This document shows positions 9,300-25,909 of a stretch of 64,000 nt of DNA, piece by piece. Origin of the DNA: an uncultured delta proteobacterium (lineage in GTDB: Bacteria; Desulfobacterota; Binatia; Binatales; Binataceae). Position 1 is the stretch's first letter. Each line of letters starts with the position of its first letter. Where the stretch lies: contig CAVRVY010000004.1 in NCBI GenBank assembly GCA_963724765.1, positions 160,001 through 224,000 of the forward strand. Direction: 5' to 3'. The position numbers and the translations under genes are program-made. The notes below the pieces were generated by a model that saw only the letters and a list, made by a program, of their open reading frames with translations, had not been told where the DNA came from and did no database searches.

Positions 9300-9970
9300 T
9301 CGCTGATGATTATAACCGGCAGTCCCAAGCGTGCGGTCTGGACCGCACGCGCCTGGGCCTGCTCGCGGGTTGCGAATCCACCCATCCGCACACGGTAATA
9401 GCGCCTGCCTCCGGTATCAAGCTCACTCAGCTTCACGTCGGCGTAGTATGCGGCGAGGCGAACACGGATATTCTCAGCGTTGCCCGGGTCGGCGTACGAT
9501 CCGGCTTGCACGAAGTATTGCGGCTCGCCCGCGGGATCGAACTCCGGCGTCGACACCAGGTCCATCCGCACCAGTGCGGTGCCGGGCCCGACCATCCCGA
9601 GCGCACGCGCCGCGCCATAGGAAAGATCGATCTTGCGTCCCTTGCGAAACGGTCCGCGATCGTTGATTCGCACCTCGACCGCGCGTCCGCTGCCGAGATC
9701 GGTCACGATCACACGCGAACCCAGCGGAAAGATACTCGAAGCGGCGGTCATCTGGTCCTGGTTGTAGATTTCGCCGGTCGCGGTCGGATGGCCGTTGAAG
9801 CCCGGCCCATACCATGACGCCTTGCCGACGACGGAACGGATTGAACCCGGCCCGGACGGAACGAGCGCCAGCCCCGCGCTCGGCGACGGCTGGCGCGAGG
9901 CGCATCCCGCCGCCATCGCACACGCAGCCAACGCGAGCCCCAGCCACCGCCGCCTCATCATCATCCGCAC
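9296..9970 (-). CDS. rlpA: Septal ring lytic transglycosylase RlpA with SPOR domain
   Basis: Lipobox AAGC; GKASWYG..F.G..TATGE, VRINDRGPF, IDLS; C-terminal SPOR-like VQAGSY...YRVRMG. Confidence 0.93.
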   Translation of the reverse strand: MRMMMRRRWLGLALAACAMAAGCASRQPSPSAGLALVPSGPGSIRSVVGKASWYGPGFNGHPTATGEIYNQDQMTAASSIFPLGSRVIVTDLGSGRAVEVRINDRGPFRKGRKIDLSYGAARALGMVGPGTALVRMDLVSTPEFDPAGEPQYFVQAGSYADPGNAENIRVRLAAYYADVKLSELDTGGRRYYRVRMGGFATREQAQARAVQTARLGLPVIIISE

Positions 9971-14545: not shown

Positions 14546-15817
14546 TCACTGCGTGTACAAATCCGTGGTGTTGAGTGACCCGAAGATGCCTCCACCGCCG
14601 GCAATGAGGACCTTGCCGTTGGGTAGCAGCGTGGCAGTTGCATCAAGGCGCTGATAATTCATGCTGGGAGTTAAAGAAGCCGGAAAAAAGCTGTTGGTTG
14701 CGGGATCGTAGATATCAACGATGCTCGTATCAATGCTCCCAGTTATTCCGCCTGCGATCAGCACATTGGCATTGTTCAGCAACGTGGCTGTGGCTTCCAC
14801 ACGAGCCTTGTTCATCAGCGGAGTCGAAGACGCCGGGGCGAAGGTATTGCTCGCTGGGTCATACAAATCCACGTCGTTAAGTATCGGGTTCAAGGTGCCC
14901 CCACTCAGACCCAGGCCGCCAGCGATGAGCACTTTGCCGTTGGCCAGCAAAGTCGCCGTGGCTTGTTCGCGCGCTTCGTTCATTAACGGGGTCGAGGTGG
15001 CGAAGCTATTGGTAGCTGGATCGTACAAGTCCACGCTATTGGTCGGGGACTCTGTGGCTAACGATTTGCCATCATCGCCGCCGGCAATCAGCACCTTGCC
15101 ATTCGGTAACAGTGTCGCTGTGGCGTCACCCCGCGCGTCGCTCATCGCAGGAAGTGACGCGGCGGCGGCGAAGCTGTTGGTCGCCGGATCGTACAACTCC
15201 ACGCTGTTTAGCTGTATCCCGGGAGGATAAGGAAGCGCCGCGAAGCCACCCCCCCTGCGATCAGCACCTTGCCGTTGGGCAACAATACGGCGGTGGCCTG
15301 AGTGCGCGCAGTGTTCATGACCGGAACTGACGCGGCTGTAGCAAAGCTGTTGGTCGCCGGGTCATACAACTCGATGCTGTTTAGCGGTCCTGGAACGCCC
15401 CCCCCCAAGGGCCTCACCGCCCGCTATCAGCACCTTGCCGTTCGGCAGCAACACGGCGGCGGCCTGATAGCGCGCCGTGTTCATCGTGGGAGTCGAAGCG
15501 GGCGGAGCAAAACTGTTGCTCGCGGAACCATACAACTCCACGCTGTCGAGATACGTTCCAAAAAAGGGAGAGAGCGAGGTGCGGCCAAAGCCGCCTGCGA
15601 TAAGCACGTTACCGTTGGGCAACAACGTGGCGGTGGCGCCTTGACGTTCCTGATTCATGGAGGGGGTGGTACCTAGCGCAGCAAAGCTGCCACCTGAGGC
15701 AGGCTGCGCCTGCGGCGAAGACCCTGCCGAAGGCGAGGCGGACGAACCGCCGCCACATCCGGCAAGCATCAGGATGACGCTGAAGATGAGACCGCACCAG
15801 CTGCGTCCACTGGTCAT
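14546..15817 (-). pseudogene. Kelch-repeat (7-blade beta-propeller) lipoprotein broken by two poly-G frameshifts
   Basis: Lipobox LAGC; seven ATxxLLxNGKVLIAGG...ELYDP repeats over three ORFs; frame changes at G9 (15398-15406) and G7 (15249-15255); G8 at both restores one 423-aa ORF. Confidence 0.85.
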
Positions 15818-15953
15818 GTTGTTCCTCTCTGAGATCTTCAAACCTTCGGGATTCGACCGCAGATGCTCGGGCGTCCGGACGCGCTGCGAGGCGGCGAGCG
15901 CGGCGCCAGCGCGCCATGCCGACAATGAAAGCAGCGCGCAGGTCGAATCGGCT

Positions 15954-15981
15954 AGCTGACATAATATTTCAAGCGCCTGTT
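15954..15981 (-). other. dif-like Xer site A
   Basis: + strand AGCTGACATAA-TATTTC-AAGCGCCTGTT; XerD arm 10/11 and spacer 6/6 identical to dif; XerC arm degenerate. Confidence 0.75.
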
Positions 15982-16057
15982 ACGAACTCTGCGTTCGCGC
16001 CACGCTTGCAATAGGAGTAAAGCCGGATGTGCGTGCTAGACGCGAAGGAGCCAAGCA

Positions 16058-16426
16058 ATGGCAGTTAAAGCGATAGGGGAATTTTCGTTCAAGGCCATCA
16101 CCAGCACCTACAGTCCCGGGCCGGCGGGAAGCGTTCTCGACCAAGTGAATTGGGAAGGGACGGCGGCGGGGTTCGGAACAGTCTTCGGCACGGCTACCTA
16201 CGTCGGTGGTTCCAAGAACGGGACCTTCAGTGCGTGTTGGGTCGCTTACCTGGACAACGGCGAGCAACTTTCGGGTATCGGTTCTGGCACCTATGAGAGC
16301 AGCGGCAAACACCACTGGCGCACGCAGCACGTAATTCACATATCCGACGGCACTAGTATCGTCAACGAAGGTGAGATCGACCTGGCCACTCGGTCGTGGA
16401 CGGGTAAAAATTTCGAGAATAGCTGA
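16058..16426 (+). CDS. Hypothetical beta-rich protein, sole gene between dif-like sites A and B
   Basis: 122-aa ORF with AAGGAG RBS. Confidence 0.75.
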   Translation: MAVKAIGEFSFKAITSTYSPGPAGSVLDQVNWEGTAAGFGTVFGTATYVGGSKNGTFSACWVAYLDNGEQLSGIGSGTYESSGKHHWRTQHVIHISDGTSIVNEGEIDLATRSWTGKNFENS

Positions 16427-16557
16427 ACGCGGGAGTCTCGCCTCCGCCGGCCCGGCGCGCATAAAGGAGGACTTTCGTCCAAAAATTCCTCTGCTGAAGG
16501 GTTGGTAAGCGCGGCGAGCCGGAATCGGTCGCCGCGCTTTTCATTCGCGGATAAGCA

Positions 16558-16585
16558 AGCAGACATAATATTTCTCACGCAACTG
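16558..16585 (-). other. dif-like Xer site B
   Basis: + strand AGCAGACATAA-TATTTC-TCACGCAACTG; same spacer as dif. Confidence 0.75.
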
Positions 16586-16587
16586 GA

Positions 16588-16615
16588 CCGAAGCGCTGGC
16601 GACGTTACGTCAACT
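16588..16615 (+). other. Inverted dif-like Xer site F
   Basis: CCGAAGCGCTG-GCGACG-TTACGTCAACT; XerD arm 10/11 to dif; lies 2 bp from site B. Confidence 0.65.
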
Positions 16616-17447
16616 ACGTTGGCGATTTTGTTGCAATCGACAGTCATTTCAAATAGGCTTGTCGAATGGCTCAGAATCTGGTCAGAGCGGCCAAGGCGAT
16701 AGCGCGAGCGACGGCGAGCCGAGTAGTAGTCCCGCTACTCGTCCACGGCGAGGTGCGCTGTGAGCCTCGCGAACCCGGATCTAGGAGAACTTGAAGTGAG
16801 GCCCTTTAACCTCCAGTACAAAGGCCCGCTTCATTCAATGCAATCGGATAAAGCTGATCGAAAAAAAGAAGTCCATGATATTCGGCGAGCGTTTCACGAC
16901 CAATTAAAGCGACCGTGGAAATCGACCGAATTGCTCCGCTTTAAGTCGCAACACGATTATCACGGGTTCCCTTATCGCGGACAGCGTTATCAATCCGGAG
17001 ATGGACGGTGGCTACCTCTTGATCTAGATTGGGCTGTTACAAAACGAACAAAAGCCGGGCGAGACATAAATTTCATTCCTTTAGTAATACGCGCTACAGG
17101 GATGGCCCTTACTTGTGAACTTGAAATGCGGATTGCCTGGCGCGAAAAGACTCAAGGTGGGATCGTTCGAGCGACCGCAGAAGGCTTCGATTTAGACAAT
17201 CGGCTTAAACACATTCTCGATGCATTGGCGATCCCACAAGACAATCAATTGCCTGACGACGTTGCGGCTGACCCGTCGCCATATTTTCTAACCTTGCTCG
17301 AAGACGACGGCTTGATAACTCGCATCGATGTAAAGGCACATCCGATTGGCTTGCCAAAGCAACCAACGGAGCTAGACGCTTATCTTGAGTGGAGTTGACC
17401 CGGTTTCGTGGACAGTGGCGGAGTGGGGAAAGTGAAGGAGAGCCACG

Positions 17448-17762
17448 ATGCCCAAGAGTCATGCACGGTATGCGCTGGAATACCGGCGCCGAATGGTGGA
17501 GCTGGCGCGGGCAGGGCGTAGTCCCGACGATCTCGCGAAGGAGTTCGAGCCGACCGCCCAGTCGATTCGCAACTGGGTGGCGCAGGCGGAGCGCGATGCG
17601 GGCCGTCGTCTTGATGGGCTGACCAGCGACGAGCGGCAGGAGCTTACCCGGCTGCGGCGTGAGAACCGGGTGCTGCGCGAAGAGCGCGAGATACTATCAA
17701 AAGCCGCGGCCTGGTTCGCGACGGAGACCGGTTCGGTGCCGTCACGGCGTTCGAATTCGTGA
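17448..17762 (+). CDS. IS3 transposase OrfA (HTH plus leucine zipper)
   Basis: YALEYRRRMVEL...SIRNWV...ELTRLRRENRVLREEREILSKAAAWF; AAAAG possible -1 slip site near 17699. Confidence 0.92.
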   Translation: MPKSHARYALEYRRRMVELARAGRSPDDLAKEFEPTAQSIRNWVAQAERDAGRRLDGLTSDERQELTRLRRENRVLREEREILSKAAAWFATETGSVPSRRSNS

Positions 17763-18643
17763 GCGCGAATCAGGCCATGTACCAGATTGCGACGATGTGC
17801 CGGGTGCTGGAGGTCTCCACCAGCGGATACTACGCGTGGTGCCAACGCTCGCCGTCCGCGCGCGCCCAGGCGGACGCGGAACTCACTTCACGGATGAACG
17901 CGATTCATGAGAGATCGTACGGGACCTACGGCGCACCGCGCATTCACGCCGAACTTGAGGCTGAAGGCATTCAAGTGGGGCGCAAGCGGGTGGCGCGGCT
18001 AATGCGCGCGGCAGGCTTGGCCGGCGTGAGCCGGCGCAAGTGGATAACCACCACGATGCGTGACCGCAATGCGCGTCCGGCGCCGGACCTGGTCGAGCGC
18101 AACTTCATGGCGCCAGGACCGAATCGGTTGTGGGTGGCTGACATCACCTATATCCCGACCTGGGCTGGTTTCCTGTATCTCGCGGTAGTGTTGGACGCCT
18201 TCAGCCGCCGGATCGTGGGCTGGGCGATGGCGACTCATCTGCGCACCGAGCTGGTGCTCGAAGCACTGAACATGGCGCTGGCGCAGCGGCGGCCCGCCGG
18301 GGTGATCCATCATTCCGACCAAGGCACACAGTACACGTCGATCGCCTTCGGGATACGTTGCCGGGAGGCCGGCGCGCGACCCTCGATGGGCTCGGTCGGT
18401 GATTGCTTCGACAATGCCATGTGCGAGAGCTTTTTCGCTACGCTCGAATGCGAGCTGCTCGACCGCCGCCGTTTCCACACCCAAGCCGAGGCGCGCATGG
18501 CGGTCTTCGAGTTCATCGAGGGCTGGTACAATCCCCATCGCCGCCACTCCGCCCTCGACTATCTGTCGCCAATCAACTACGAAAGGAGCCACGACCCAGA
18601 GGAGTCAACCGCAAGCCCTCCGCCGTCCACTGAACCGGGGTAA
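17759..18643 (+). CDS. IS3 transposase OrfB (DDE integrase core)
   Basis: WVADITY, HHSDQGTQY, DNAMCESFF motifs. Confidence 0.95.
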   Translation: MSANQAMYQIATMCRVLEVSTSGYYAWCQRSPSARAQADAELTSRMNAIHERSYGTYGAPRIHAELEAEGIQVGRKRVARLMRAAGLAGVSRRKWITTTMRDRNARPAPDLVERNFMAPGPNRLWVADITYIPTWAGFLYLAVVLDAFSRRIVGWAMATHLRTELVLEALNMALAQRRPAGVIHHSDQGTQYTSIAFGIRCREAGARPSMGSVGDCFDNAMCESFFATLECELLDRRRFHTQAEARMAVFEFIEGWYNPHRRHSALDYLSPINYERSHDPEESTASPPPSTEPG

Positions 18644-18764
18644 CTCCAGAGATCGACATTGATGTGACGGTCCAGAGCGATGCGCTCGATGATTTTTAAG
18701 CCTTTCTGAGACTCGTTGGCGCCTGTTGAGTCGCGCTTTAGTATGCTGCGCGGATGTTCGCGCC

Positions 18765-19217
18765 CTACTCCAATAAGTCCACCATTGAAGACCCTAATTG
18801 TTGGTGGATCTGCTCCCAACGTGCCGTCGCCGCAAGGAGTTTGTCGTGGGCCTTGTCGCGCTCTTTCTCAAGGTCTGTGATTTGCGTTTTCAATTCCCGC
18901 ACCGCGCTCTCGACTGATTGAACATTTTGGACGGCCGTATGGCGCGCTTGTGCTAGGCGCGCCAGTTCTGGCTCAAGTGAGGGTCTCACATTTGAAGTAG
19001 CAGTGTCACGATATTCTCGAAACTTCTGATAATTCAGTTCTGCTTTTTCTCGCAATTCGTTGACATATGGCAACGTGCCTTTCGTATTGTTCGCCTTTGT
19101 TCTTATGAGCATGAGCTGGTCGTCATATTTTTGGACGCGCTCGCTCGCTTGGATACGTTTGGCATTTTCCACTTCCAGAGCATGTTGAAGATTTTCTCTA
19201 ATGCCCACCTCGTTCAC
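18765..19217 (-). CDS. Coiled-coil passenger protein of IS1595 #1
   Basis: 150-aa heptad-rich ORF, coupled (GTGA overlap) to the upstream small ORF. Confidence 0.6.
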   Translation of the reverse strand: MNEVGIRENLQHALEVENAKRIQASERVQKYDDQLMLIRTKANNTKGTLPYVNELREKAELNYQKFREYRDTATSNVRPSLEPELARLAQARHTAVQNVQSVESAVRELKTQITDLEKERDKAHDKLLAATARWEQIHQQLGSSMVDLLE

Positions 19218-19381
19218 CTCTGCCCGATCCTTGTCTTTGGATCTGAATGAATTGCTTTTCCTAACAACTTGTCAAACTTTCCTAAGTCAATATGGCGGAT
19301 CTGCTCCCGCAGCTTGTCATCCTCTGCGCGCTGCTTTTCGCTGATCGGCTTGTGCTTTTGCCTACGCTTTTTTGTGGCCAC
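19214..19381 (-). CDS. Small basic protein downstream of transposase #1 (55 aa, not in ORF track)
   Basis: MATKKRRQKHKPISEKQRAEDDKLREQIRHIDLGKFDKLLGKAI…; homologous to 24699-24854; TAAAGT -10 box 6 nt before GTG. Confidence 0.72.
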   Translation of the reverse strand: MATKKRRQKHKPISEKQRAEDDKLREQIRHIDLGKFDKLLGKAIHSDPKTRIGQR

Positions 19382-19431
19382 GCTTGTACTTTAGCGCGGC
19401 CACGGAGCCTAGGCCATATGGTGCTTGCAAA

Positions 19432-20364
19432 CTATCCACTGCACGTTTCGACCATCGCAGCAAAGGCGTCTGCGCTGTGGCGATTGTTGTGGCGAAAGCT
19501 GAACTCATTTAGATACAGCGGCAGATAATCCTTGCTCACGTGGTGATAGGTGCCCACCACGCCACGCTTGAGCAATGCCCAGAACGATTCGATATTGTTT
19601 GTGTGAACCTCGCCGCGCACATATTCGCCGCGACCGTGATTCACAGCCTGATGCGGGATGCTTCTGTTCAGATAGCGATAGGCTTGATTTTCATCGGTCG
19701 CAACCAGTGAAACCTTGTCGCTCACAGTGCGATTAACGAAACCAGTCAGAGTTTGGGCGCCCATATCGCCAATGACCTTGGCGACGATGTTGCCCTTGCG
19801 CTCGATAGCGCCAATCACGCCGACTTTGCCGTAGCCGATGGCTTCGCCTAGAGGCTGTCGGCCTTTGGCCTTGCGTACCTGGGCGCTTTTCTTGCCGTAG
19901 TGGCGATTCCGATCCTTTCCACCGATGTAAGTTTCATCGACTTCGACTTGGCCAGTCAGCGAAAACGCATCGCCTTTCATCGCAGCACGCCAGCGATGGC
20001 AGATATACCAAGCTGTGCGCCAGTCTGTACCTGAATCCTCGCCAAACATAACGCGCCGAACCTGAAGCGAGCTAATGCCTTTCTTCGCGGTCAGCATCAT
20101 GTAGCCAATGCGAAACCAGATAACCAGTGAGACTTTGGTGTCTTGAAAAATCGTGGCTGTGGTGACGCTAAAGCGATAGCCCGCGCGCTTGCCGCAATCG
20201 GCGTTGCAGCAAGTCCAGCTAAAGGGTTTCTTTAACTTGTAGATTTTCTCCGCACGATTACAGCGAGGGCAGCGCACGCCGTTCGGCCAGCGCTTGGCGA
20301 CGATGTATTCTTTGCAGGCTTCATCGGTCGGAAACTGTTTCTCGAATAGCGCCAGTGTTTCCAT
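19432..20364 (-). CDS. IS1595-family transposase #1
   Basis: Zn ribbon (RWPNGVRCPRC), EVDETYIGG, VATDE, HTNNIESFW, YLNEFSFRHN. Confidence 0.95.
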   Translation of the reverse strand: METLALFEKQFPTDEACKEYIVAKRWPNGVRCPRCNRAEKIYKLKKPFSWTCCNADCGKRAGYRFSVTTATIFQDTKVSLVIWFRIGYMMLTAKKGISSLQVRRVMFGEDSGTDWRTAWYICHRWRAAMKGDAFSLTGQVEVDETYIGGKDRNRHYGKKSAQVRKAKGRQPLGEAIGYGKVGVIGAIERKGNIVAKVIGDMGAQTLTGFVNRTVSDKVSLVATDENQAYRYLNRSIPHQAVNHGRGEYVRGEVHTNNIESFWALLKRGVVGTYHHVSKDYLPLYLNEFSFRHNNRHSADAFAAMVETCSG

Positions 20365-20371
20365 GCTTCAG

Positions 20372-20400
20372 ATATTAGCGCTCTTTGCGTTGACTGTCAA
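20372..20400 (-). promoter_or_regulatory. sigma70-type promoter of transposase #1 (TTGACA-17-TAATAT), likely leaderless
   Basis: -35 box at TIR positions 17-22; -10 box ends 7 nt before ATG. Confidence 0.7.
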
Positions 20401-20420
20401 TACCAACAAAATAGCCACTA

Positions 20421-20449
20421 CGTAGACATAAATACTTGGAGTGCAAGTT
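20421..20449 (-). other. dif-like Xer site C (degenerate)
   Basis: + strand CGTAGACATAA-ATACTTG-GAGTGCAAGTT; XerC-side GTGCAA matches site D only with a 7-bp spacer. Confidence 0.55.
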
Positions 20450-20955
20450 CACCCTCTCAGGTCCGGAGTCGGCCTCGAAGCGGAAACCAGCAGGGAGATA
20501 AAGGCGATTACAGTTACACCAAGGATCCAAAGGGTCGCCAGCATGAATATGACCGCTTCCTCGCGGATGAGATAACCGGCAGCTGCCGCAAAGCTCGCGG
20601 CAGCGATTCCTAAGCCCATCACACTCGTAGTGGAAGAGCGAAGTATTTCAGTCCGATGTCGGGAGGTTTCGAGCACGAGACGACCGCCGCCGATGAGATG
20701 TATTAGACCAGACACTGCGTTGCAGATCTGCCATGCAATGTGCTCTTCGGATGCCAGATACACCAGCAGAAGCGCAGCGAAAAGGGACAGAAATAGAGCG
20801 CTCAGCGAGGAGTACATGAAATGAAACAGCGCCGAGGTTTGGCCCCTACCTAGACGGTGAGATCGCTCACCAAAAACAAAGACCACGCCGATGAATCCGG
20901 TCAGAGTCGCGGCCACTTGCGCGTAGGCGAGGAGAATAACCGCGTAACTACTCAT
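20449..20955 (-). CDS. Multi-pass membrane hypothetical protein, sole gene between dif-like sites C and D
   Basis: About 5 hydrophobic segments; stop codon abuts site C. Confidence 0.75.
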   Translation of the reverse strand: MSSYAVILLAYAQVAATLTGFIGVVFVFGERSHRLGRGQTSALFHFMYSSLSALFLSLFAALLLVYLASEEHIAWQICNAVSGLIHLIGGGRLVLETSRHRTEILRSSTTSVMGLGIAAASFAAAAGYLIREEAVIFMLATLWILGVTVIAFISLLVSASRPTPDLRG

Positions 20956-21000
20956 GTTGGGGTGCTAGGCTCTCTCGAAATCACGATAATTTTCGAGTCT

Positions 21001-21028
21001 GGTGAACATAATATTTCTCGTGCAACTG
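21001..21028 (-). other. dif-like Xer site D
   Basis: + strand GGTGAACATAA-TATTTC-TCGTGCAACTG; same spacer as dif; XerC arm 9/11 to site B. Confidence 0.75.
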
Positions 21029-21030
21029 CA

Positions 21031-21058
21031 AAGAAGCGGTCGCAAGATTATGTCAACT
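21031..21058 (+). other. Inverted dif-like Xer site E
   Basis: AAGAAGCGGTC-GCAAGA-TTATGTCAACT; XerD arm identical to dif; lies 2 bp from site D. Confidence 0.7.
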
Positions 21059-21084
21059 TGAATCAAGTGGCGATTATCCGGCGC

Positions 21085-21113
21085 TTGACACCGACCCAAT
21101 AAAGCGCTATTCT
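21085..21113 (+). promoter_or_regulatory. sigma70-type promoter of transposase #2 (TTGACA-17-TATTCT), likely leaderless
   Basis: -35 box at TIR positions 17-22; -10 box ends 7 nt before ATG 21121. Confidence 0.72.
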
Positions 21114-21120
21114 TTTCATC

Positions 21121-22101
21121 ATGAATACGAAGAGAAAGCCCGTTGTTCGGCAGATGCAATTGCGCGAGCTTCTGGCCCGTTTCTCGACTGAGGATGCTTG
21201 CAAAGAACACCTTGACCGAAGGCGCTGGCCGGATGGTGTGGTCAAGTGCCCGCGTTGCGGCGGCAAAGCATACCGGCTCAAGGCGCGCCCCTTCCACTAC
21301 CTGTGCAAGAGCGGCAAGCAATCGACCGATAAAGAGACCGGCGATGTCGTTACCTGCCACAAACAAAACGGCTATCGCTTCTCCGTCATCACGCGAACTG
21401 TGTTCGAGAATACGAACTACCCTCTTCGAGAATGGTTCCGGGTAATCTTCTTCATGCTGCACTCGAAGAAAGGAATGTCTGCCCATCAGATACACCGCAT
21501 GATCGGAACCGGCTCGTATGAAACCGCTTGGTATATGTGCATACGAATTCGCGCCGCAATGCGCGGCGATATGCTTTCGCTGAGCGGCATTGTAGAAGCG
21601 GACGAGACTTACATCGGCGGGAAGGATCGCAATCGACACTGGAACAAAAAGAGCCGTCAGCAACGTGAATTGGCTGGGCCACAACCGCTTGGCGAGGCCG
21701 TTGGATACGGGAAAAGCGGAGTCATCGGCGCAATCGCTCGCAAGGGTAACGTCGTCTGCCGCGTGATCGGCGATCAGGATGCTCGCACGCTTGCGGGTTT
21801 CGTTCGCAACGTCGTTGACGACAAGGTAACCCTCGTCGCGACGGACGAGAACCAAGCCTACAATTATTTGGACCGCGACATTCGCCATGAGGCGGTCAAG
21901 CACAGCGCTGGCGAATACGTGCGCGGCGAGGTCCATACGAACAACATCGAGAGTTTCTGGAGCCTTCTGAAGCGTGGCGTTGTGGGCACCTATCACAACG
22001 TGAGCAAGAAATATCTGCCGCTGTATCTGAATGAATTTTCCTTCCGATTCAACAATCGCGAGAACCCTGATATCTTCGACGCCATCCTTCGAGGATGCTG
22101 A
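21121..22101 (+). CDS. IS1595-family transposase #2
   Basis: RWPDGVVKCPRC, EADETYIGG, VATDE, HTNNIESFW, YLNEFSFRFNNR. Confidence 0.95.
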   Translation: MNTKRKPVVRQMQLRELLARFSTEDACKEHLDRRRWPDGVVKCPRCGGKAYRLKARPFHYLCKSGKQSTDKETGDVVTCHKQNGYRFSVITRTVFENTNYPLREWFRVIFFMLHSKKGMSAHQIHRMIGTGSYETAWYMCIRIRAAMRGDMLSLSGIVEADETYIGGKDRNRHWNKKSRQQRELAGPQPLGEAVGYGKSGVIGAIARKGNVVCRVIGDQDARTLAGFVRNVVDDKVTLVATDENQAYNYLDRDIRHEAVKHSAGEYVRGEVHTNNIESFWSLLKRGVVGTYHNVSKKYLPLYLNEFSFRFNNRENPDIFDAILRGC

Positions 22102-22177
22102 GTTCGCCACGCTGGCGGCGCCCTCAGCAACCGTCAAAGCCAGCGCAATTGCGGTTACCGTTTGCTGCGAGGGTGGG

Positions 22178-22453
22178 ATGGCACGGAAGAAAGCAAAACG
22201 ATCGGTTGGATCAGCTCGCGTTCCAATTTCCGATGAAAAATTGATCGCGCGCCTCCAAGAGAAAGCGCCGGAGCTATTGACTGCCAAGGTTTCGGAAGCG
22301 GCCTTTGATTCGGTCATAGACAATCTGCTTGCGGAATCGCCATCCGATGATCGTCCGCATTTCTATTGCCGCAAATGCGGGGAATATCACCTGAAAAGTC
22401 ATTTGCACTATCAACCTAGCGCCACTACGAAAACCACCCCAAAACAAGCTTGA
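22178..22453 (+). CDS. Small basic protein downstream of transposase #2, with C-terminal CxxC/His motif
   Basis: MARKKAKRS…AAFDSVIDNLL…YCRKCGEYHLKSH; GAGGG RBS before ATG 22178. Confidence 0.65.
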   Translation: MARKKAKRSVGSARVPISDEKLIARLQEKAPELLTAKVSEAAFDSVIDNLLAESPSDDRPHFYCRKCGEYHLKSHLHYQPSATTKTTPKQA

Positions 22454-23075
22454 GCGATCAAGAGAAGAAAGATTCCCCCGAACCCGCAGAGCGCGGAACG
22501 AAGGGGAGTCACCTGACGGGGCACTTCGAACTCGATCTCCCAAATCCCAACGAGGATACAACCGCAGGCGAAAGAATCAGAAATCCTTCAAGCGCCGCCT
22601 TTTTAACGACCTGCGAAACCCGCGCTTTTATATCGAAGGATTCGCTCTCATCGTTGTTGCCATCTATACCGGCTTCGCTGGATATCAATCGTGTCAGTTG
22701 GAACGCTCTACCATTGCGACCAAAGAAAGCGCTGATGCTGCGGTTGCGGCGACGCGTGCCTTGATCTTTCTCGAAGAGAAACCATTTTTCGGCAGTTATG
22801 GACCTGTATGCACTATGGGCTTGCAAAATGTCGGCAAGATTCCCGCTACTCAGATAATCGAAACGCACGAATTCAAGATCACCGCCAACGATAATGCCGT
22901 TCCGAGTTTTTCCCGATGTCCTGAAGGGAAGAAACTCCGCTTCCCGTATATCAGGCCTGATCATCCGAGAATCTTCGCAATCGCTCCACCGGTCGGAGCT
23001 TCCCAGACTCCGCCCACAGTCTGGATTCACGGCTGTATTCGCTATCGCGACTTCTTGAGCGCGCGTCTAGTTTAG
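22450..23075 (+). pseudogene. Membrane-anchored passenger protein, probably frameshifted
   Basis: The frame of the 22698-23075 ORF stays open upstream through a TM segment (FALIVVAIYTGFAGYQ) but has no start; the likely TTG start at 22450 is in another frame. Confidence 0.45.
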
Positions 23076-23240
23076 ACCCACGATCTGGTCGGTGTCGAGT
23101 ATCGGATAATCGCCCCTCAAGTGGGGACTAGGTGAATGTTGACACCCACTGAAAGTTGGCATAAAAAGAGTCGAGGACGGCTATGCAGGGAGGTTCTGCG
23201 GGCGGGGTTCCCGCCCGGTTACAAGGGCCGCGAGTGGTTT

Positions 23241-23979
23241 ATGATTCTCCACGCTTACTTTGACGAACACGGGCACGATGGATCGTCCGTATACGCCATC
23301 GCTGGTTACGTCGGGACCGATGAGCAATGGAGCACGTTCACTGAAAAGTGGAGCTCTACCCTAGAGCGTCATTATGCATTCGGCCCGTTCCACATGGTCG
23401 AGTTCGAGGCTTCAGACATAGACAAAAAGAGCCAGTTCCACGGCTGGAGCAAGGATCAAAAGGACGCGCTGGCGAAAGAGCTTTTTCCGCTCATCCCTGA
23501 CAGCGGTGTGCGCGGATTAGGCCAAGCGATACTGATGGACGCCTTTAATGGCCTTTCGGAGAATGCACAGCAACGGTTACGCGATCCTTATTGGGGTCTG
23601 CTTCCACAACTGTATCGAACGACTACTGAAGGACATTCCAGAGGACGACAAGGTTGATTTGGTTTTTGATCGCAAAGACAAATACACTGGCGAAGCGCTG
23701 GATCGCTATAGATTTCTCAAGGATGACTGGCTGCCGCCTGCACAGGCGAAAAAGCTAGTGGGTTGTGCATTCAGAGACGACGATATCATTATTCCGCTAC
23801 AAGCAGCGGACGTTCTCGTTTATGAAACCGGCAAATTATTTGAGAACGCCTTTCGTAGGCCAGATTTATCGGAGAGAAAGTCACTGCAAGTTCTCCGTGC
23901 GCGACAAAACGTACAAATCGGAGTCTGGGACAGGGATAATCTTGCCGCAGAGTTTAAAAAATACAACTCCCTACTCTAG
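23241..23979 (+). pseudogene. DUF3800-like protein with a +1 frameshift at a G4 run (23593-23596)
   Basis: AYFDEHG N-terminal and PLQAADVLVY C-terminal motifs in different frames; removing one G joins DPYW|VCFHNC; start may lie further upstream. Confidence 0.7.
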
Positions 23980-24179
23980 CCACTGCTGGTAAGACACGCC
24001 CAAAAAATAGCGGCGACCACCGCGACGGCGCCTAAAACCAGCGGAATCGCACAGCCGATAAGGCCGAGCGCATCGCCCACTCCCATCGGGCCGGGATGGC
24101 TTTGGCCGCAATGTGGGCAGACCTTCGCTTTCTCTGAAACAGGCGCGTGGCAGGTTTTGCAGTTGACCAGAGCGGCCAC
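23976..24179 (-). CDS. Small zinc-ribbon plus TM passenger protein
   Basis: CKTC...CPHCG followed by a hydrophobic helix. Confidence 0.65.
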   Translation of the reverse strand: MAALVNCKTCHAPVSEKAKVCPHCGQSHPGPMGVGDALGLIGCAIPLVLGAVAVVAAIFWACLTSSG

Positions 24180-24185
24180 GAACGT

Positions 24186-24674
24186 TCAACGGCCGAAGCG
24201 GCATACATTAGAAATCAGGCGCTGAGAGATGTCCTCGCACGACGTGTAGGTTGAGCCATCATCACAATCAAATCGTAGTTCATCGTTCTCAGCGACCTTG
24301 ATAGCGAGATATCTGGCATCAACGCGCCTATAAGACGCGAGGGGACCGTACAGCCGAGATTCGACAATACTGATGTATCGCCCAGCATTGCTGAATTCTA
24401 CTTCAATTTTTACATAAGGCAGTCGAGCGGTTGCGGTTAATACAAACTTCGTATCGCTGAGCTCTAGAAATGCGCAATGGCATTCTGGGTTCGCCTTAAG
24501 TTCTCGGCGAAGCTTTTCTGAATCGATAGAGATTCGATGCTTCAACGAATCCCAAAAAAGCGGCGCCTTGGCGGCAATAATAGCGGCGTTGTGTAGGCGC
24601 AGCCTGTCTCGAATGATCGCCCGTTCGTCTTGCTCGCGTTGCTGGCTCTTTAGTGTCTCTATCCAGTCGCTCAT
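24186..24674 (-). CDS. Hypothetical passenger protein of IS1595 #3
   Basis: Open frame co-oriented with transposase operon; no recognised motif. Confidence 0.55.
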   Translation of the reverse strand: MSDWIETLKSQQREQDERAIIRDRLRLHNAAIIAAKAPLFWDSLKHRISIDSEKLRRELKANPECHCAFLELSDTKFVLTATARLPYVKIEVEFSNAGRYISIVESRLYGPLASYRRVDARYLAIKVAENDELRFDCDDGSTYTSCEDISQRLISNVCRFGR

Positions 24675-24698
24675 AGTTCCATCCGCCACCACGTCTTT

Positions 24699-24854
24699 TC
24701 ATTTAGCCCCTTCCCGAGAACGGAAAAGTGGCTTGATGGCCCGCTTGAATTTCTCAGGGTCGGCGTACGCGAGTTCCTGTCTTAGGCGCTCGTCTTCGGC
24801 GCGCGTTTTCTCTTTCAACCTGCTTGGCTGCTTCGATTTGGTCTTGCGAGGCAC
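24699..24854 (-). CDS. Small basic protein downstream of transposase #3 (51 aa, not in ORF track)
   Basis: MPRKTKSKQPSRLKEKTRAEDERLRQELAYADPEKFKRAIKPLF…; shares EKxRAEDxxLR……DxxKF with 19214-19381; TATGCT -10 box 6 nt before GTG. Confidence 0.72.
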   Translation of the reverse strand: MPRKTKSKQPSRLKEKTRAEDERLRQELAYADPEKFKRAIKPLFRSREGAK

Positions 24855-24886
24855 GCTGAAAGCATAGCGCTTTCAAATCGCGCCGG

Positions 24887-25825
24887 CTACTGAGCGCACG
24901 TCGTAATCAAGTCGGCAAACATGTTCTCGTTCTTTCGATTGTTAAAGCGATAGCTGAATTCGTTCAAATAGAAGGGCAGATACTTCTTGCTGACGTTATG
25001 GTAGTTGCCGACGATTCCGCGCTTCAGCAACGCCCAGAACGATTCGATTGAGTTTGTGTGAACGTTGCCGCGCACGTATTCGCCGCGCGCGTGGCTCACG
25101 GCCTGATGCGGCATGCCTGCGCGAACAAACTTATAAGCTGGATTCTCGTCAGTCGCGACGAGCGTAACTTTCTCGTCTGTGGCGCGGCGCACGAATGAAC
25201 CGAGAGTAGGAGCATCCATCGAGCCGATAACGCGGGCCACGACGTTGCCCTTGCGCTCGATAGCCCCGATCACGCCGACCTTCCCGAATCCAACGGCCTC
25301 GCCAAGCCGTTGCGCGCCCTTGGCCTTGCGTACCTGGGCGCTCTTTTTGTTCTTGTGACGATTGCGGTCTTTCCCGCCGATATAAGTCTCGTCAACCTCG
25401 ACTTCGCCGCTCAGTGGACGGTACATATCGCCAGCCATCGCAGCGCGCCAGCGCATGCACATGAACCAGCTTGTGTGATAGTCGTGCGTGGAATTCTCGC
25501 CAAACATCACGCGATGAATCTGAAGCGCACTCATGCCTTTCTTTGAAGTCAGCATCAGATAGCCGACCTTAAACCAAAGATCGAGCGGCTTCTTTGTATT
25601 CTCGAAGATCGTTCCGCTGATGACCGAGAACCGAAAGCCCTGACGCTTGCCGCAATCCTCGTTCTTGCAGACCCAATGAAAGGGCCGCGCCTTGAGCGCG
25701 TAGACCTTTTCCTTGCGATCGCAGCGGGGGCAGCGCACGCCGTCCGGCCAGCGCATTTGAACCAGAAAGCGACGGCATTGCTCGTCGGTTCCAAACTCTC
25801 TATCGAAGTCGCCGATGGTCTGCAT
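24887..25825 (-). CDS. IS1595-family transposase #3
   Basis: RWPDGVRCPRC, EVDETYIGG, VATDE, HTNSIESFW, YLNEFSYRFNNR; start placed at ATG 25825. Confidence 0.95.
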   Translation of the reverse strand: MQTIGDFDREFGTDEQCRRFLVQMRWPDGVRCPRCDRKEKVYALKARPFHWVCKNEDCGKRQGFRFSVISGTIFENTKKPLDLWFKVGYLMLTSKKGMSALQIHRVMFGENSTHDYHTSWFMCMRWRAAMAGDMYRPLSGEVEVDETYIGGKDRNRHKNKKSAQVRKAKGAQRLGEAVGFGKVGVIGAIERKGNVVARVIGSMDAPTLGSFVRRATDEKVTLVATDENPAYKFVRAGMPHQAVSHARGEYVRGNVHTNSIESFWALLKRGIVGNYHNVSKKYLPFYLNEFSYRFNNRKNENMFADLITTCAQ

Positions 25826-25831
25826 GCTCAA

Positions 25832-25860
25832 AGAATAGCGCTAAACGAGACGAGTGTCAA
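25832..25860 (-). promoter_or_regulatory. sigma70-type promoter of transposase #3 (TTGACA-17-TATTCT), likely leaderless
   Basis: -35 box at TIR positions 17-22; -10 box ends 6 nt before ATG. Confidence 0.72.
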
Positions 25861-25881
25861 CATTCACCTAGTCCCCCCTCA

Positions 25882-25909
25882 AGTTGACATAATATTTCTT
25901 ATGCGAAGC
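25882..25909 (-). other. dif: Chromosomal dif site (XerC/XerD recombination site)
   Basis: GCTTCGCATAA-GAAATA-TTATGTCAACT versus E. coli GGTGCGCATAA-TGTATA-TTATGTTAAAT (9/11 in each arm); intergenic; KOPS-like motifs converge on it. Confidence 0.9.

Follow-up and report, generated by a model that had tools for sequence, protein, structure and literature searches.

Introduction

Most of what is known about mobile DNA that depends on the host recombinases XerC and XerD comes from phages of Vibrio, the gonococcal island and plasmids of Acinetobacter. In the uncultured soil and peat lineage Binataceae single-gene cassettes are found stacked at the chromosomal dif site, with one recurring junction which carries an extra XerD arm. 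This junction, a unit of 58 bp, occurs twice (units A and B) in the 64,000-nucleotide stretch examined here (called the window), which is positions 160,001 to 224,000 of contig C4 (CAVRVY010000004.1) of one Binataceae genome. Judged from its sequence, the locus consists of small cassettes bounded by Xer sites, which form a low-GC array beside dif on its XerD side, and three insertion sequences (IS) of the IS1595 family have inserted into this array. We give an even chance to the view that the 58-bp unit forms the XerC-side end, conserved between copies, of a small module within this array, termed C' after its variant XerC arm, and that its inverted arm probably is an accessory XerD-binding element. 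Should the arm indeed bind XerD and alter recombination, the locus would be a simple and testable example of a host recombination site modified for the stable holding of foreign DNA. The unit is a variant within the known Xer-dependent mobile modules; its interest is moderate alone and higher together with the array and with the IS elements that hunt XerD arms. In what follows G000 is the genome of the window, other G-numbers are its relatives, L-numbers are loci and metagenome contigs, and C2, C3 and C4 are contigs of G000.

Integrative mobile elements exploiting Xer (IMEX) are represented by the CTX, VGJ and TLC phages of Vibrio and by the gonococcal genetic island (PMC4246890, PMC9226527). 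The locus resembles them in lying at dif, in the tandem arrangement of its elements, in direct hybrid dif-like repeats as bounds and in having no integrase of its own, the host XerC and XerD being the presumed recombinases. It differs from them in the size of the cassettes, which are about 0.35-1 kb long, mostly hold a single gene and contain no replication or phage genes by Pfam. In addition, the XerD arm and the central region are conserved here and the XerC arms are degenerate, and one module type bears an extra inverted XerD arm 19 nt past its XerC-side arm.

A second comparison is offered by the plasmid dif (pdif) modules of Acinetobacter, described as small gene modules bounded by XerC/XerD sites (PMC13141974, PMC7399989, 10.1101/2022.12.17.520857). 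These are likewise small modules without their own recombinase which are shuffled between replicons, and IS elements that home to the sites exist in both cases. The pdif sites, however, are located on plasmids in alternating orientation, whereas the sites described here are direct repeats at the chromosomal dif and only the unit's inner arm is inverted. In terms of pdif sites the 58-bp unit would equal two inverted sites 2 bp apart, of which one is complete.

At the plasmid sites cer and psi about 180 bp of accessory DNA are bound by PepA, ArgR or ArcA. The unit resembles these sites in having extra DNA on the XerC side of an Xer core, which could shape the recombination complex, but its sole conserved extra is an 11-bp XerD arm at +19. 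The discussion section of the preprint 10.1101/2022.12.17.520857 touches on such accessory sequences. The same preprint and PMC10132070 describe 'dif hunters' of the IS1202 family (the ISAjo2/ISAba32 group), which insert 5 bp from the XerC arm, always with the left inverted repeat (IRL) on the side of the site, and make duplications of 5-6 bp. The IS1595 elements of the present locus are similar in their fixed short distance from Xer sites, in their repeated or tandem occurrence, in their presence on chromosomes as well as on plasmids and in the passenger genes which some of them carry. They differ from the IS1202 group in family, in lying on the XerD side, in duplications of 8 bp which include the outer 3 nt of the arm, and in inserting in either orientation. 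Targeting by IS1595 would thus add a second family, and the XerD arm, to the only dif-targeting IS case described in these sources, which is that of IS1202 on the XerC side.

Anatomy of the 58-bp unit

Two strings of 58 bp lie exactly at 16558-16615 (unit A) and 21001-21058 (unit B), where an earlier note, made from the sequence alone, had placed them. As it had said, the two are diverged yet alike: a repeat search aligned 16563-16615 with 21006-21058 at 79% identity over 53 nt, and in both units the outer XerD-like arms are inverted and 36 bp apart. Each sits between a cassette gene and an IS1595 element, unit A between the gene of a cassette designated E1 (16058-16426) and the end of an IS1595-family element, unit B between an open reading frame (ORF) at 20449-20955 and the IS1595 transposase gene at 21121-22101. 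A pattern derived from unit B, which ran from the end of the central region through 9 nt of the inner arm and 21 free nt to the outer arm, had one match in the window, with 0.00 expected in shuffled sequences. No promoter-like sites were found inside units A and B; strong ones are present only at the IS transposase promoters.

The note had taken the unit for two full 28-bp Xer sites in inverted orientation, and this was borne out for the left half only. Seven full units were compared, namely A and B of the window and those of G013, G015, G016, L165 and L174. Their left half is composed of an 11-bp XerD arm, a 6-bp central region and an 11-bp XerC-type arm and is a complete Xer-type site. In the right half the inner 17 nt are not conserved among the units: the XerC arm is unconserved and the central region is unlike that of dif, the 6 nt adjoining the inverted arm being equal to the dif central region in none of the seven. 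The unit therefore consists of one full site and a lone inverted XerD arm.

The spacing is the same in all seven units, with the inverted arm 19 nt past the XerC-type arm of the left half, the C' arm. The inner 6 nt of the left XerD arm are invariant (identity 1.0, 7/7), and its outer 5 nt occur as six different pentamers among the seven units, which is expected if each neighbouring cassette supplies its own arm. The central region has an identity of 0.94-0.95 and equals that of dif in six of the seven units, with one change in G015. For the C' arm (TCGTGCAACTG and near variants) the identity is 0.89-0.90, and 0.89 between two subtypes of the unit; with the XerC arm of dif it has the core T..TGC.A in common (5/11). 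Identity between subtypes falls to 0.35 in the 19-nt spacer after the C' arm. It is 0.97 in the inverted XerD arm, which matches the dif arm at 11/11 positions in six units and has one change in unit A. In the 30-nt right flank it is 0.24 between subtypes.

This association was also seen among 38 distinct Xer-type sites gathered from the genus. An inverted arm at +19 is present at all seven sites with a C' arm, and a control motif gave 0. Among the Xer-type sites without a C' arm one of 31, in G014, has a weaker inverted arm (8/11) at +21, and no dif site has one. The G014 site (L066 9946-9999) has the XerC-side arm GAGTGCCATCT and may be a weaker second example or a product of chance.

The two subtypes differ in their right-hand neighbourhood. 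The units of G013, G016, L165 and L174 are followed by a conserved flank of about 100 nt, called U, which is missing in A, B and G015. Flank U was located at L063 7912-8011, L064 9540-9640, L165 2054-2153, on the minus strand of L174, and at L063 6091-6184. It gave no Rfam match and showed 0 compensatory pairs despite a predicted fold, and it is absent from G000. The Rfam search of L165 and L174 returned a sub-threshold miRNA match only.

Distribution of the unit

The earlier note had considered the unit a conserved att-type module and had proposed a scan of genomes and metagenomes for the conserved spacing, with a lack of further instances speaking against the idea. The scan yielded five further full units with identical spacing (G013, G015, G016, L165 and L174). 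Among 61 relatives G013, G015 and G016 each had a single unit by a pattern for the left half, and together with G000 this makes 4 of 61 genomes, all of one genus. When inverted 10-nt arms were required to be exact and their spacing was left free between 1 and 60, 3 of 165 family genomes matched (again G013, G015 and G016), always with the arms 36 apart. A looser search, requiring only ACATAA on the left, gave 5 of 165 genomes, all of one genus, and comprised the five known units and the weaker G014 case. As the arm pattern with 1 mismatch matched 19 genomes and the controls similarly many, exact matches alone were counted.

In a wider scan 185,579 genomes, one for each species, yielded 85 stretches; 80 of these were read, seven had a spacing of 36, and only the three from Binataceae had a common interior. 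A metagenome scan gave 16 stretches, namely full units in L165 and L174, one cut at the contig end in L162, and 13 chance matches in low-GC sequence. Viral contigs gave 0 matches to the unit, with a gap of 15-30 nt allowed, and 0 to the dif motif. The unit is evidently a lineage-restricted family of homologous copies and not a widespread architecture. The C' site was also considered as a possible dif of another lineage; its pattern with 1 mismatch was found in 40 of 401 genomes of the phylum, about as often as the control, and none of these matches was convincing.

Cassette junctions in the array

In the genome the 12-mer ACATAATATTTC, composed of the inner XerD arm and the central region, was counted 10 times, and its control 0 times. 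In the window it is found at four sites in one orientation, at 15954, 16558 (left half of A), 21001 (left half of B) and 25882 (dif). These four direct sites have the inner XerD arm and the central region in common and differ in their XerC-side arms.

Where copies of the neighbouring cassettes could be aligned, the point of exchange became visible. Homology between E1 copies stops at 16574, and homology between the module of the ORF168 cassette (20449-21000) and L174 stops at 21017, both being the last base of the central region. An end of homology exactly at the 6-bp central region is what site-specific exchange leaves behind, and the left half is therefore a genuine junction between cassettes. 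The ORF168 protein is 93% identical in amino acids to the product of L174:1118-1624, and the DNA from 20447 to 21017 (572 nt) is 95% identical to L174. In unit B the ORF168 cassette's own XerD arm GGTGAACATAA, which also stands at the cassette end in L174, is joined to a second C' arm. This is, as indirect evidence, the configuration that would be expected of a circle junction or of a tandem insertion, with a second module which is almost empty.

Removal of the IS elements from the sequence brings the sites close together. Without IS#1 the decayed Xer-like site at 20421-20448 is 1 nt from the inverted arm of unit A, and without IS#2 and IS#3 unit B is 7 bp from dif (for these elements see Table 1). 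Both L165 and L174 have the order unit, U, about 240 nt, ORF168, and with the IS removed unit A of the window leads to ORF168 too, so that this adjacency is conserved.

The gene of E1 is present in five copies in G000, with further copies in G005, G014, G015, L165 and L174. Three copies belong to a second array, 42 kb rightward of dif, which has about five oppositely oriented Xer-type sites. E1-family locations beyond the window are C4:227626-230240 (L155 3626-6240), C3:832893 and C2:291724. The E1 copies in the second array, away from dif, show integration at non-dif sites. A minus-strand ORF at 15980-16462 was tried as a relative of ORF168, and the two proved unrelated.

Comparable arrays, in which direct dif-like sites follow one another at distances of 350 bp to a few kb, are also found beside dif in G005, G013, G014 and G016, and on L174. 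A 1349-bp segment inside the dif-side arrays of two species, G013 (L063 6348-7696) and G014 (L066 10035-11383), is 99.6% identical between them, which suggests recent horizontal movement; its cassette adjoins dif in G014 and a 58-bp unit in G013.

Pfam detected no integrase, phage or replication genes among 61 ORFs (21+19+21) around units. What it did detect were transposases, TPR, RES, DUF29, DUF4412, a methyltransferase and a glycosyltransferase. A shared cargo gene encoding an Xer cofactor was considered; no Pfam family was common to the neighbourhoods of the units among these ORFs. The genome-wide scan for Phage_integrase gave no match on contig C4 between 160001 and 224000. Logan contigs from 4 of 22 runs were all short, and their joints were short-sided and stemmed from IS paralogs, none of them being informative on the excision of cassettes.

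IS1595 elements next to XerD arms

The three IS elements, assigned to their family by Pfam PF12762 and PF12760, are evidently later insertions which interrupt the array and are not part of the unit. Elements of this IS1595 clade have a characteristic geometry, with the tip of the IS 5 nt outside the XerD arm and an 8-bp duplication that starts with the outer ACT of the arm. At dif the duplication is perfect in G000 (IS#3), G001, G013 and G016. In G000 one copy is located at 23115-23122 and the other at 25877-25884, where it overlaps with the outer 3 nt of the XerD arm of dif. Next to unit A, IS#1 ends exactly 5 nt beyond the inverted arm and so repeats the geometry seen at dif; its flanks ACTACGTT (16613-16620) and ACTACGTA (20417-20424) match at 7 of 8 positions. 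For IS#2 the agreement of the flanking 8-mers is 6 of 8. An arm-targeting IS thus seems to recognise the inverted arm of unit A, and this lends indirect support to the arm's recognisability.

A strict pattern (XerD arm, 2-8 nt, IS1595-type inverted repeat) was found at dif in 37 of 165 family genomes, or in 35 of 163 without the unpublished G187 and G188, and its control in 0. There was one match per genome, and the gap was exactly 5 nt in 36 of the 37. Reading the dif flanks by eye suggested a few more variant IS ends. Elements of the clade are 2.7-3.8 kb long, carry passenger ORFs, occur in either orientation and are sometimes in tandem (G000, G001). Related IS copies elsewhere in G000 do not adjoin XerD arms. 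The IS1595 neighbours of the units are explained by a clade which targets XerD arms, and the neighbour is not part of the module.

With this clade, a second IS family seems to home to Xer sites, here on the XerD side. A full-text literature search for IS1595 together with 'dif site' gave, among the matches listed, only a general Acinetobacter review, and IS1595 has 0 occurrences in the text of the IS1202-family preprint (10.1101/2022.12.17.520857). Whether the IS takes its cue from the bound recombinase or from the bare sequence is now approachable by experiment.

Interpretation of the unit

The left 28 bp would be a working-type Xer site composed of the XerD arm of the left cassette, the dif central region and the variant XerC arm C', and it is at this half that host XerC and XerD would have joined different cassettes to the same C' module. 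In the right 30 bp a free spacer of 19 nt would be followed by the XerD arm of dif, present once and inverted. Selection may hold this arm at its fixed distance, on the XerC side of a weak site. Its most likely role is that of an accessory or architectural element to which XerD binds, and the bound arm could modulate or insulate recombination, either by stabilising the weak XerC' site or by biasing the choice of partner. Binding of XerD and a regulatory role are predicted here; the crossover junctions, the conservation pattern and the recognition of the arm by the IS are read from the sequence. The suggestion of the earlier note that the unit might be an accessory Xer binding site fits the conservation pattern. 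A more ambitious version, which is improbable as a whole, would see in the lone inverted XerD arm 19 nt past a weak XerC-type arm a new kind of accessory element with XerD itself as the architectural factor. One junction of the array would then have special properties, for example those of a protected dock or directional gate, and the array would be an integron-like platform for gene capture on host machinery, exploited by IS1595 'XerD-arm hunters'.

Several observations weigh against the unit as a conserved module end with an accessory arm. It is confined to 4 of 17 genomes of one genus (G000 included) and to two full and one cut metagenome contigs, and as these copies are homologous and not independent inventions their common descent could account for part of the conservation. 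To the right of the unit every genome has a different cargo. With the IS removed, the C' modules of the window measure only 59-65 bp between crossover points and are thus too small to move alone as a circle. In G013 a decayed paralog (L063 6063-6184), which lacks the left arm and has a spacer of 23 nt and a degenerate C' arm, demonstrates that units can erode. The unit of G015 (L065 7329-7386) lies inverted on the XerC side of dif (9724-9751). The recognition of the arm by IS elements is open to another explanation too, as the IS inverted repeats carry a GTTGACA motif resembling the XerD arm, and the cue may be the bare arm sequence rather than bound XerD.

The kinship of the copies and the decayed paralog are also what would be expected if the right half were a functionless, decaying relic of a complete inverted Xer site, for instance one that bounded a module of opposite orientation as in Acinetobacter arrays, and the arm only seemed conserved because all units are related and come from one genus. 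The window adds to this that a site of opposite orientation follows within 1-7 bp after the inverted arm, which gives three alternating sites. Neutral decay is, however, a poor fit to an 11-nt island of 97% identity between a spacer of 35% and a flank of 24%, kept at an invariant distance and identical to the dif XerD arm at 11/11 positions in six of seven units, and such a relic is unlikely. XerD binding sites are known to unload SMC complexes in Bacillus subtilis. The inverted arm could similarly be a feature of the host terminus, a stand-alone XerD site for chromosome organisation which has no part in cassette recombination. The position in the terminus region near dif and the conservation of the XerD arm alone would agree with such a role. 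With 4 of 17 genomes positive in the genus and 0 among the 148 further family genomes searched, the patchy distribution of the arm already speaks against a core function in the host. Moreover, one genome holds it twice, it accompanies the C' arm within cassette arrays, that on L174 included, and it has no isolated counterparts in the 64-kb window outside the array; the terminus role is accordingly quite improbable.

Two further readings have very little in their favour. Both units of the window abut IS1595-family ends and the GTTGACA motif recalls the XerD arm, so that the unit might be taken for a by-product or part of its IS neighbours, such as an extended IS end, a target-site footprint or a miniature inverted-repeat transposable element (MITE). 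This reading is largely refuted by the five of seven units that are free of IS (G013, G015, G016, L165 and L174). Moreover, the inverted repeats and 8-bp duplications of the IS lie outside the unit, and the left arm varies as in Xer exchange, unlike a transposon end; an IS origin is very improbable. The earlier note had offered as its other idea the remnant of a folded single-stranded attP as in CTX phage, in which the inverted halves pair and XerCD recombines the hairpin with dif. Two inverted XerD-like arms are indeed present, and the outer arms can pair in G013, G015 and G016 (z -3.2 to -6.0). Yet when six units were folded as DNA only the outer arms paired and the interior was inconsistent, unit A has no outer stem (z +0.76), Pfam found no phage or rolling-circle genes near any unit, and there were 0 matches in viral contigs. 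Read from the sequence, the central region and the inner arms do not pair; the note itself had called the XerC arms non-complementary. A folded attP is scarcely credible and was abandoned.

Features of the window

Table 1. Array, units and IS elements in the window (positions in nucleotides of the window)
Feature	Position	Strand	Remarks
Leftmost Xer-type junction of the array	15954..15981	-	XerD-like arm, dif-type central region, XerC-side arm of E1; homology of E1 copies begins here
E1 cassette	15982..16557	+	122-aa gene (16058-16426), GC-rich hairpin with T run, own XerD arm
Unit A, left half	16558..16585	-	XerD arm of E1 cassette, central region TATTTC, C' arm TCACGCAACTG
Unit A, spacer, 19 nt	16586..16604	.	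2 bp, 'XerC arm' and 'central' of the earlier note; 35% identity between subtypes
Unit A, inverted XerD arm	16605..16615	+	TTACGTCAACT
IS#1, IS1595 family	16621..20416	-	Transposase 19432-20364, passenger ORFs, nested IS3-family IS 17448-18643
Decayed Xer-like site	20421..20448	-	XerD-like arm with 2 mismatches, altered central region; L174 homology starts at its right edge
ORF168 cassette gene	20449..20955	-	Predicted membrane protein, no Pfam family; cassette ends in own XerD arm GGTGAACATAA
Unit B, left half	21001..21028	-	XerD arm of ORF168 cassette, central region TATTTC, C' arm TCGTGCAACTG
Unit B, spacer, 19 nt, non-conserved	21029..21047	.	
Unit B, inverted XerD arm	21048..21058	+	TTATGTCAACT, same as dif XerD arm
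IS#2, IS1595 family	21069..23114	+	Transposase 21121-22101; inverted repeats 21066-21096 and 23087-23117
IS#3, IS1595 family	23123..25876	-	Transposase 24887-25831, passenger ORFs
Chromosomal dif	25882..25909	-	XerC arm GCTTCGCATAA, central region GAAATA, XerD arm TTATGTCAACT; single canonical site of the genome

The dif site was identified from its motif and its position. ATAA-N6-TTAT occurs 14 times in the genome, and the sole dif-looking occurrence is the one listed in Table 1. The dif motif TTCGCATAA-N6-TTATGT[A/C]AACT is present in 146 of 165 family genomes, mostly once in each, and control matches were almost nil. The site is located at 185.9 kb on the contig, near the contig's GC-skew peak; the cumulative GC skew has its maximum at 17-18 kb within the window and at 180 kb on the whole 1.75-Mb contig. 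The window has about 65% G+C overall and dips to 52-62% between 14 and 26 kb. XerD-arm-like 11-mers with up to 2 mismatches number 10 in the window compared with 3.3 expected, a count reached by 0 of 100 shuffles, and the convincing ones all fall within 15.9-25.9 kb. G000 has one XerC-like gene (C3, L153:750-1652, minus strand) and one XerD-like gene (C2, L154:343-1344), both slightly below the NCBIfam equivalog cut-offs; the XerD-like gene clears the subfamily cut-off of PRK00283.

In G015 the unit is 107 bp from the conserved right-hand flank, and a RES-domain ORF lies between unit and dif. This arrangement could be a rearrangement or an assembly problem in a metagenome-assembled genome (MAG) which is 74% complete, and no single Xer event from which it would follow was derived.

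Kelch-repeat genes occupy the left edge of the low-GC island (window 14546-15925) and contain seven internal DNA repeats of about 160 bp each. In the sister genus g45 a near-palindromic second site, TTCACAT[T/A]AGGAGATTTATGTCAACT, is conserved across about 18 published genomes by a count made by eye, and lies about 250-580 kb from dif where both share a contig.

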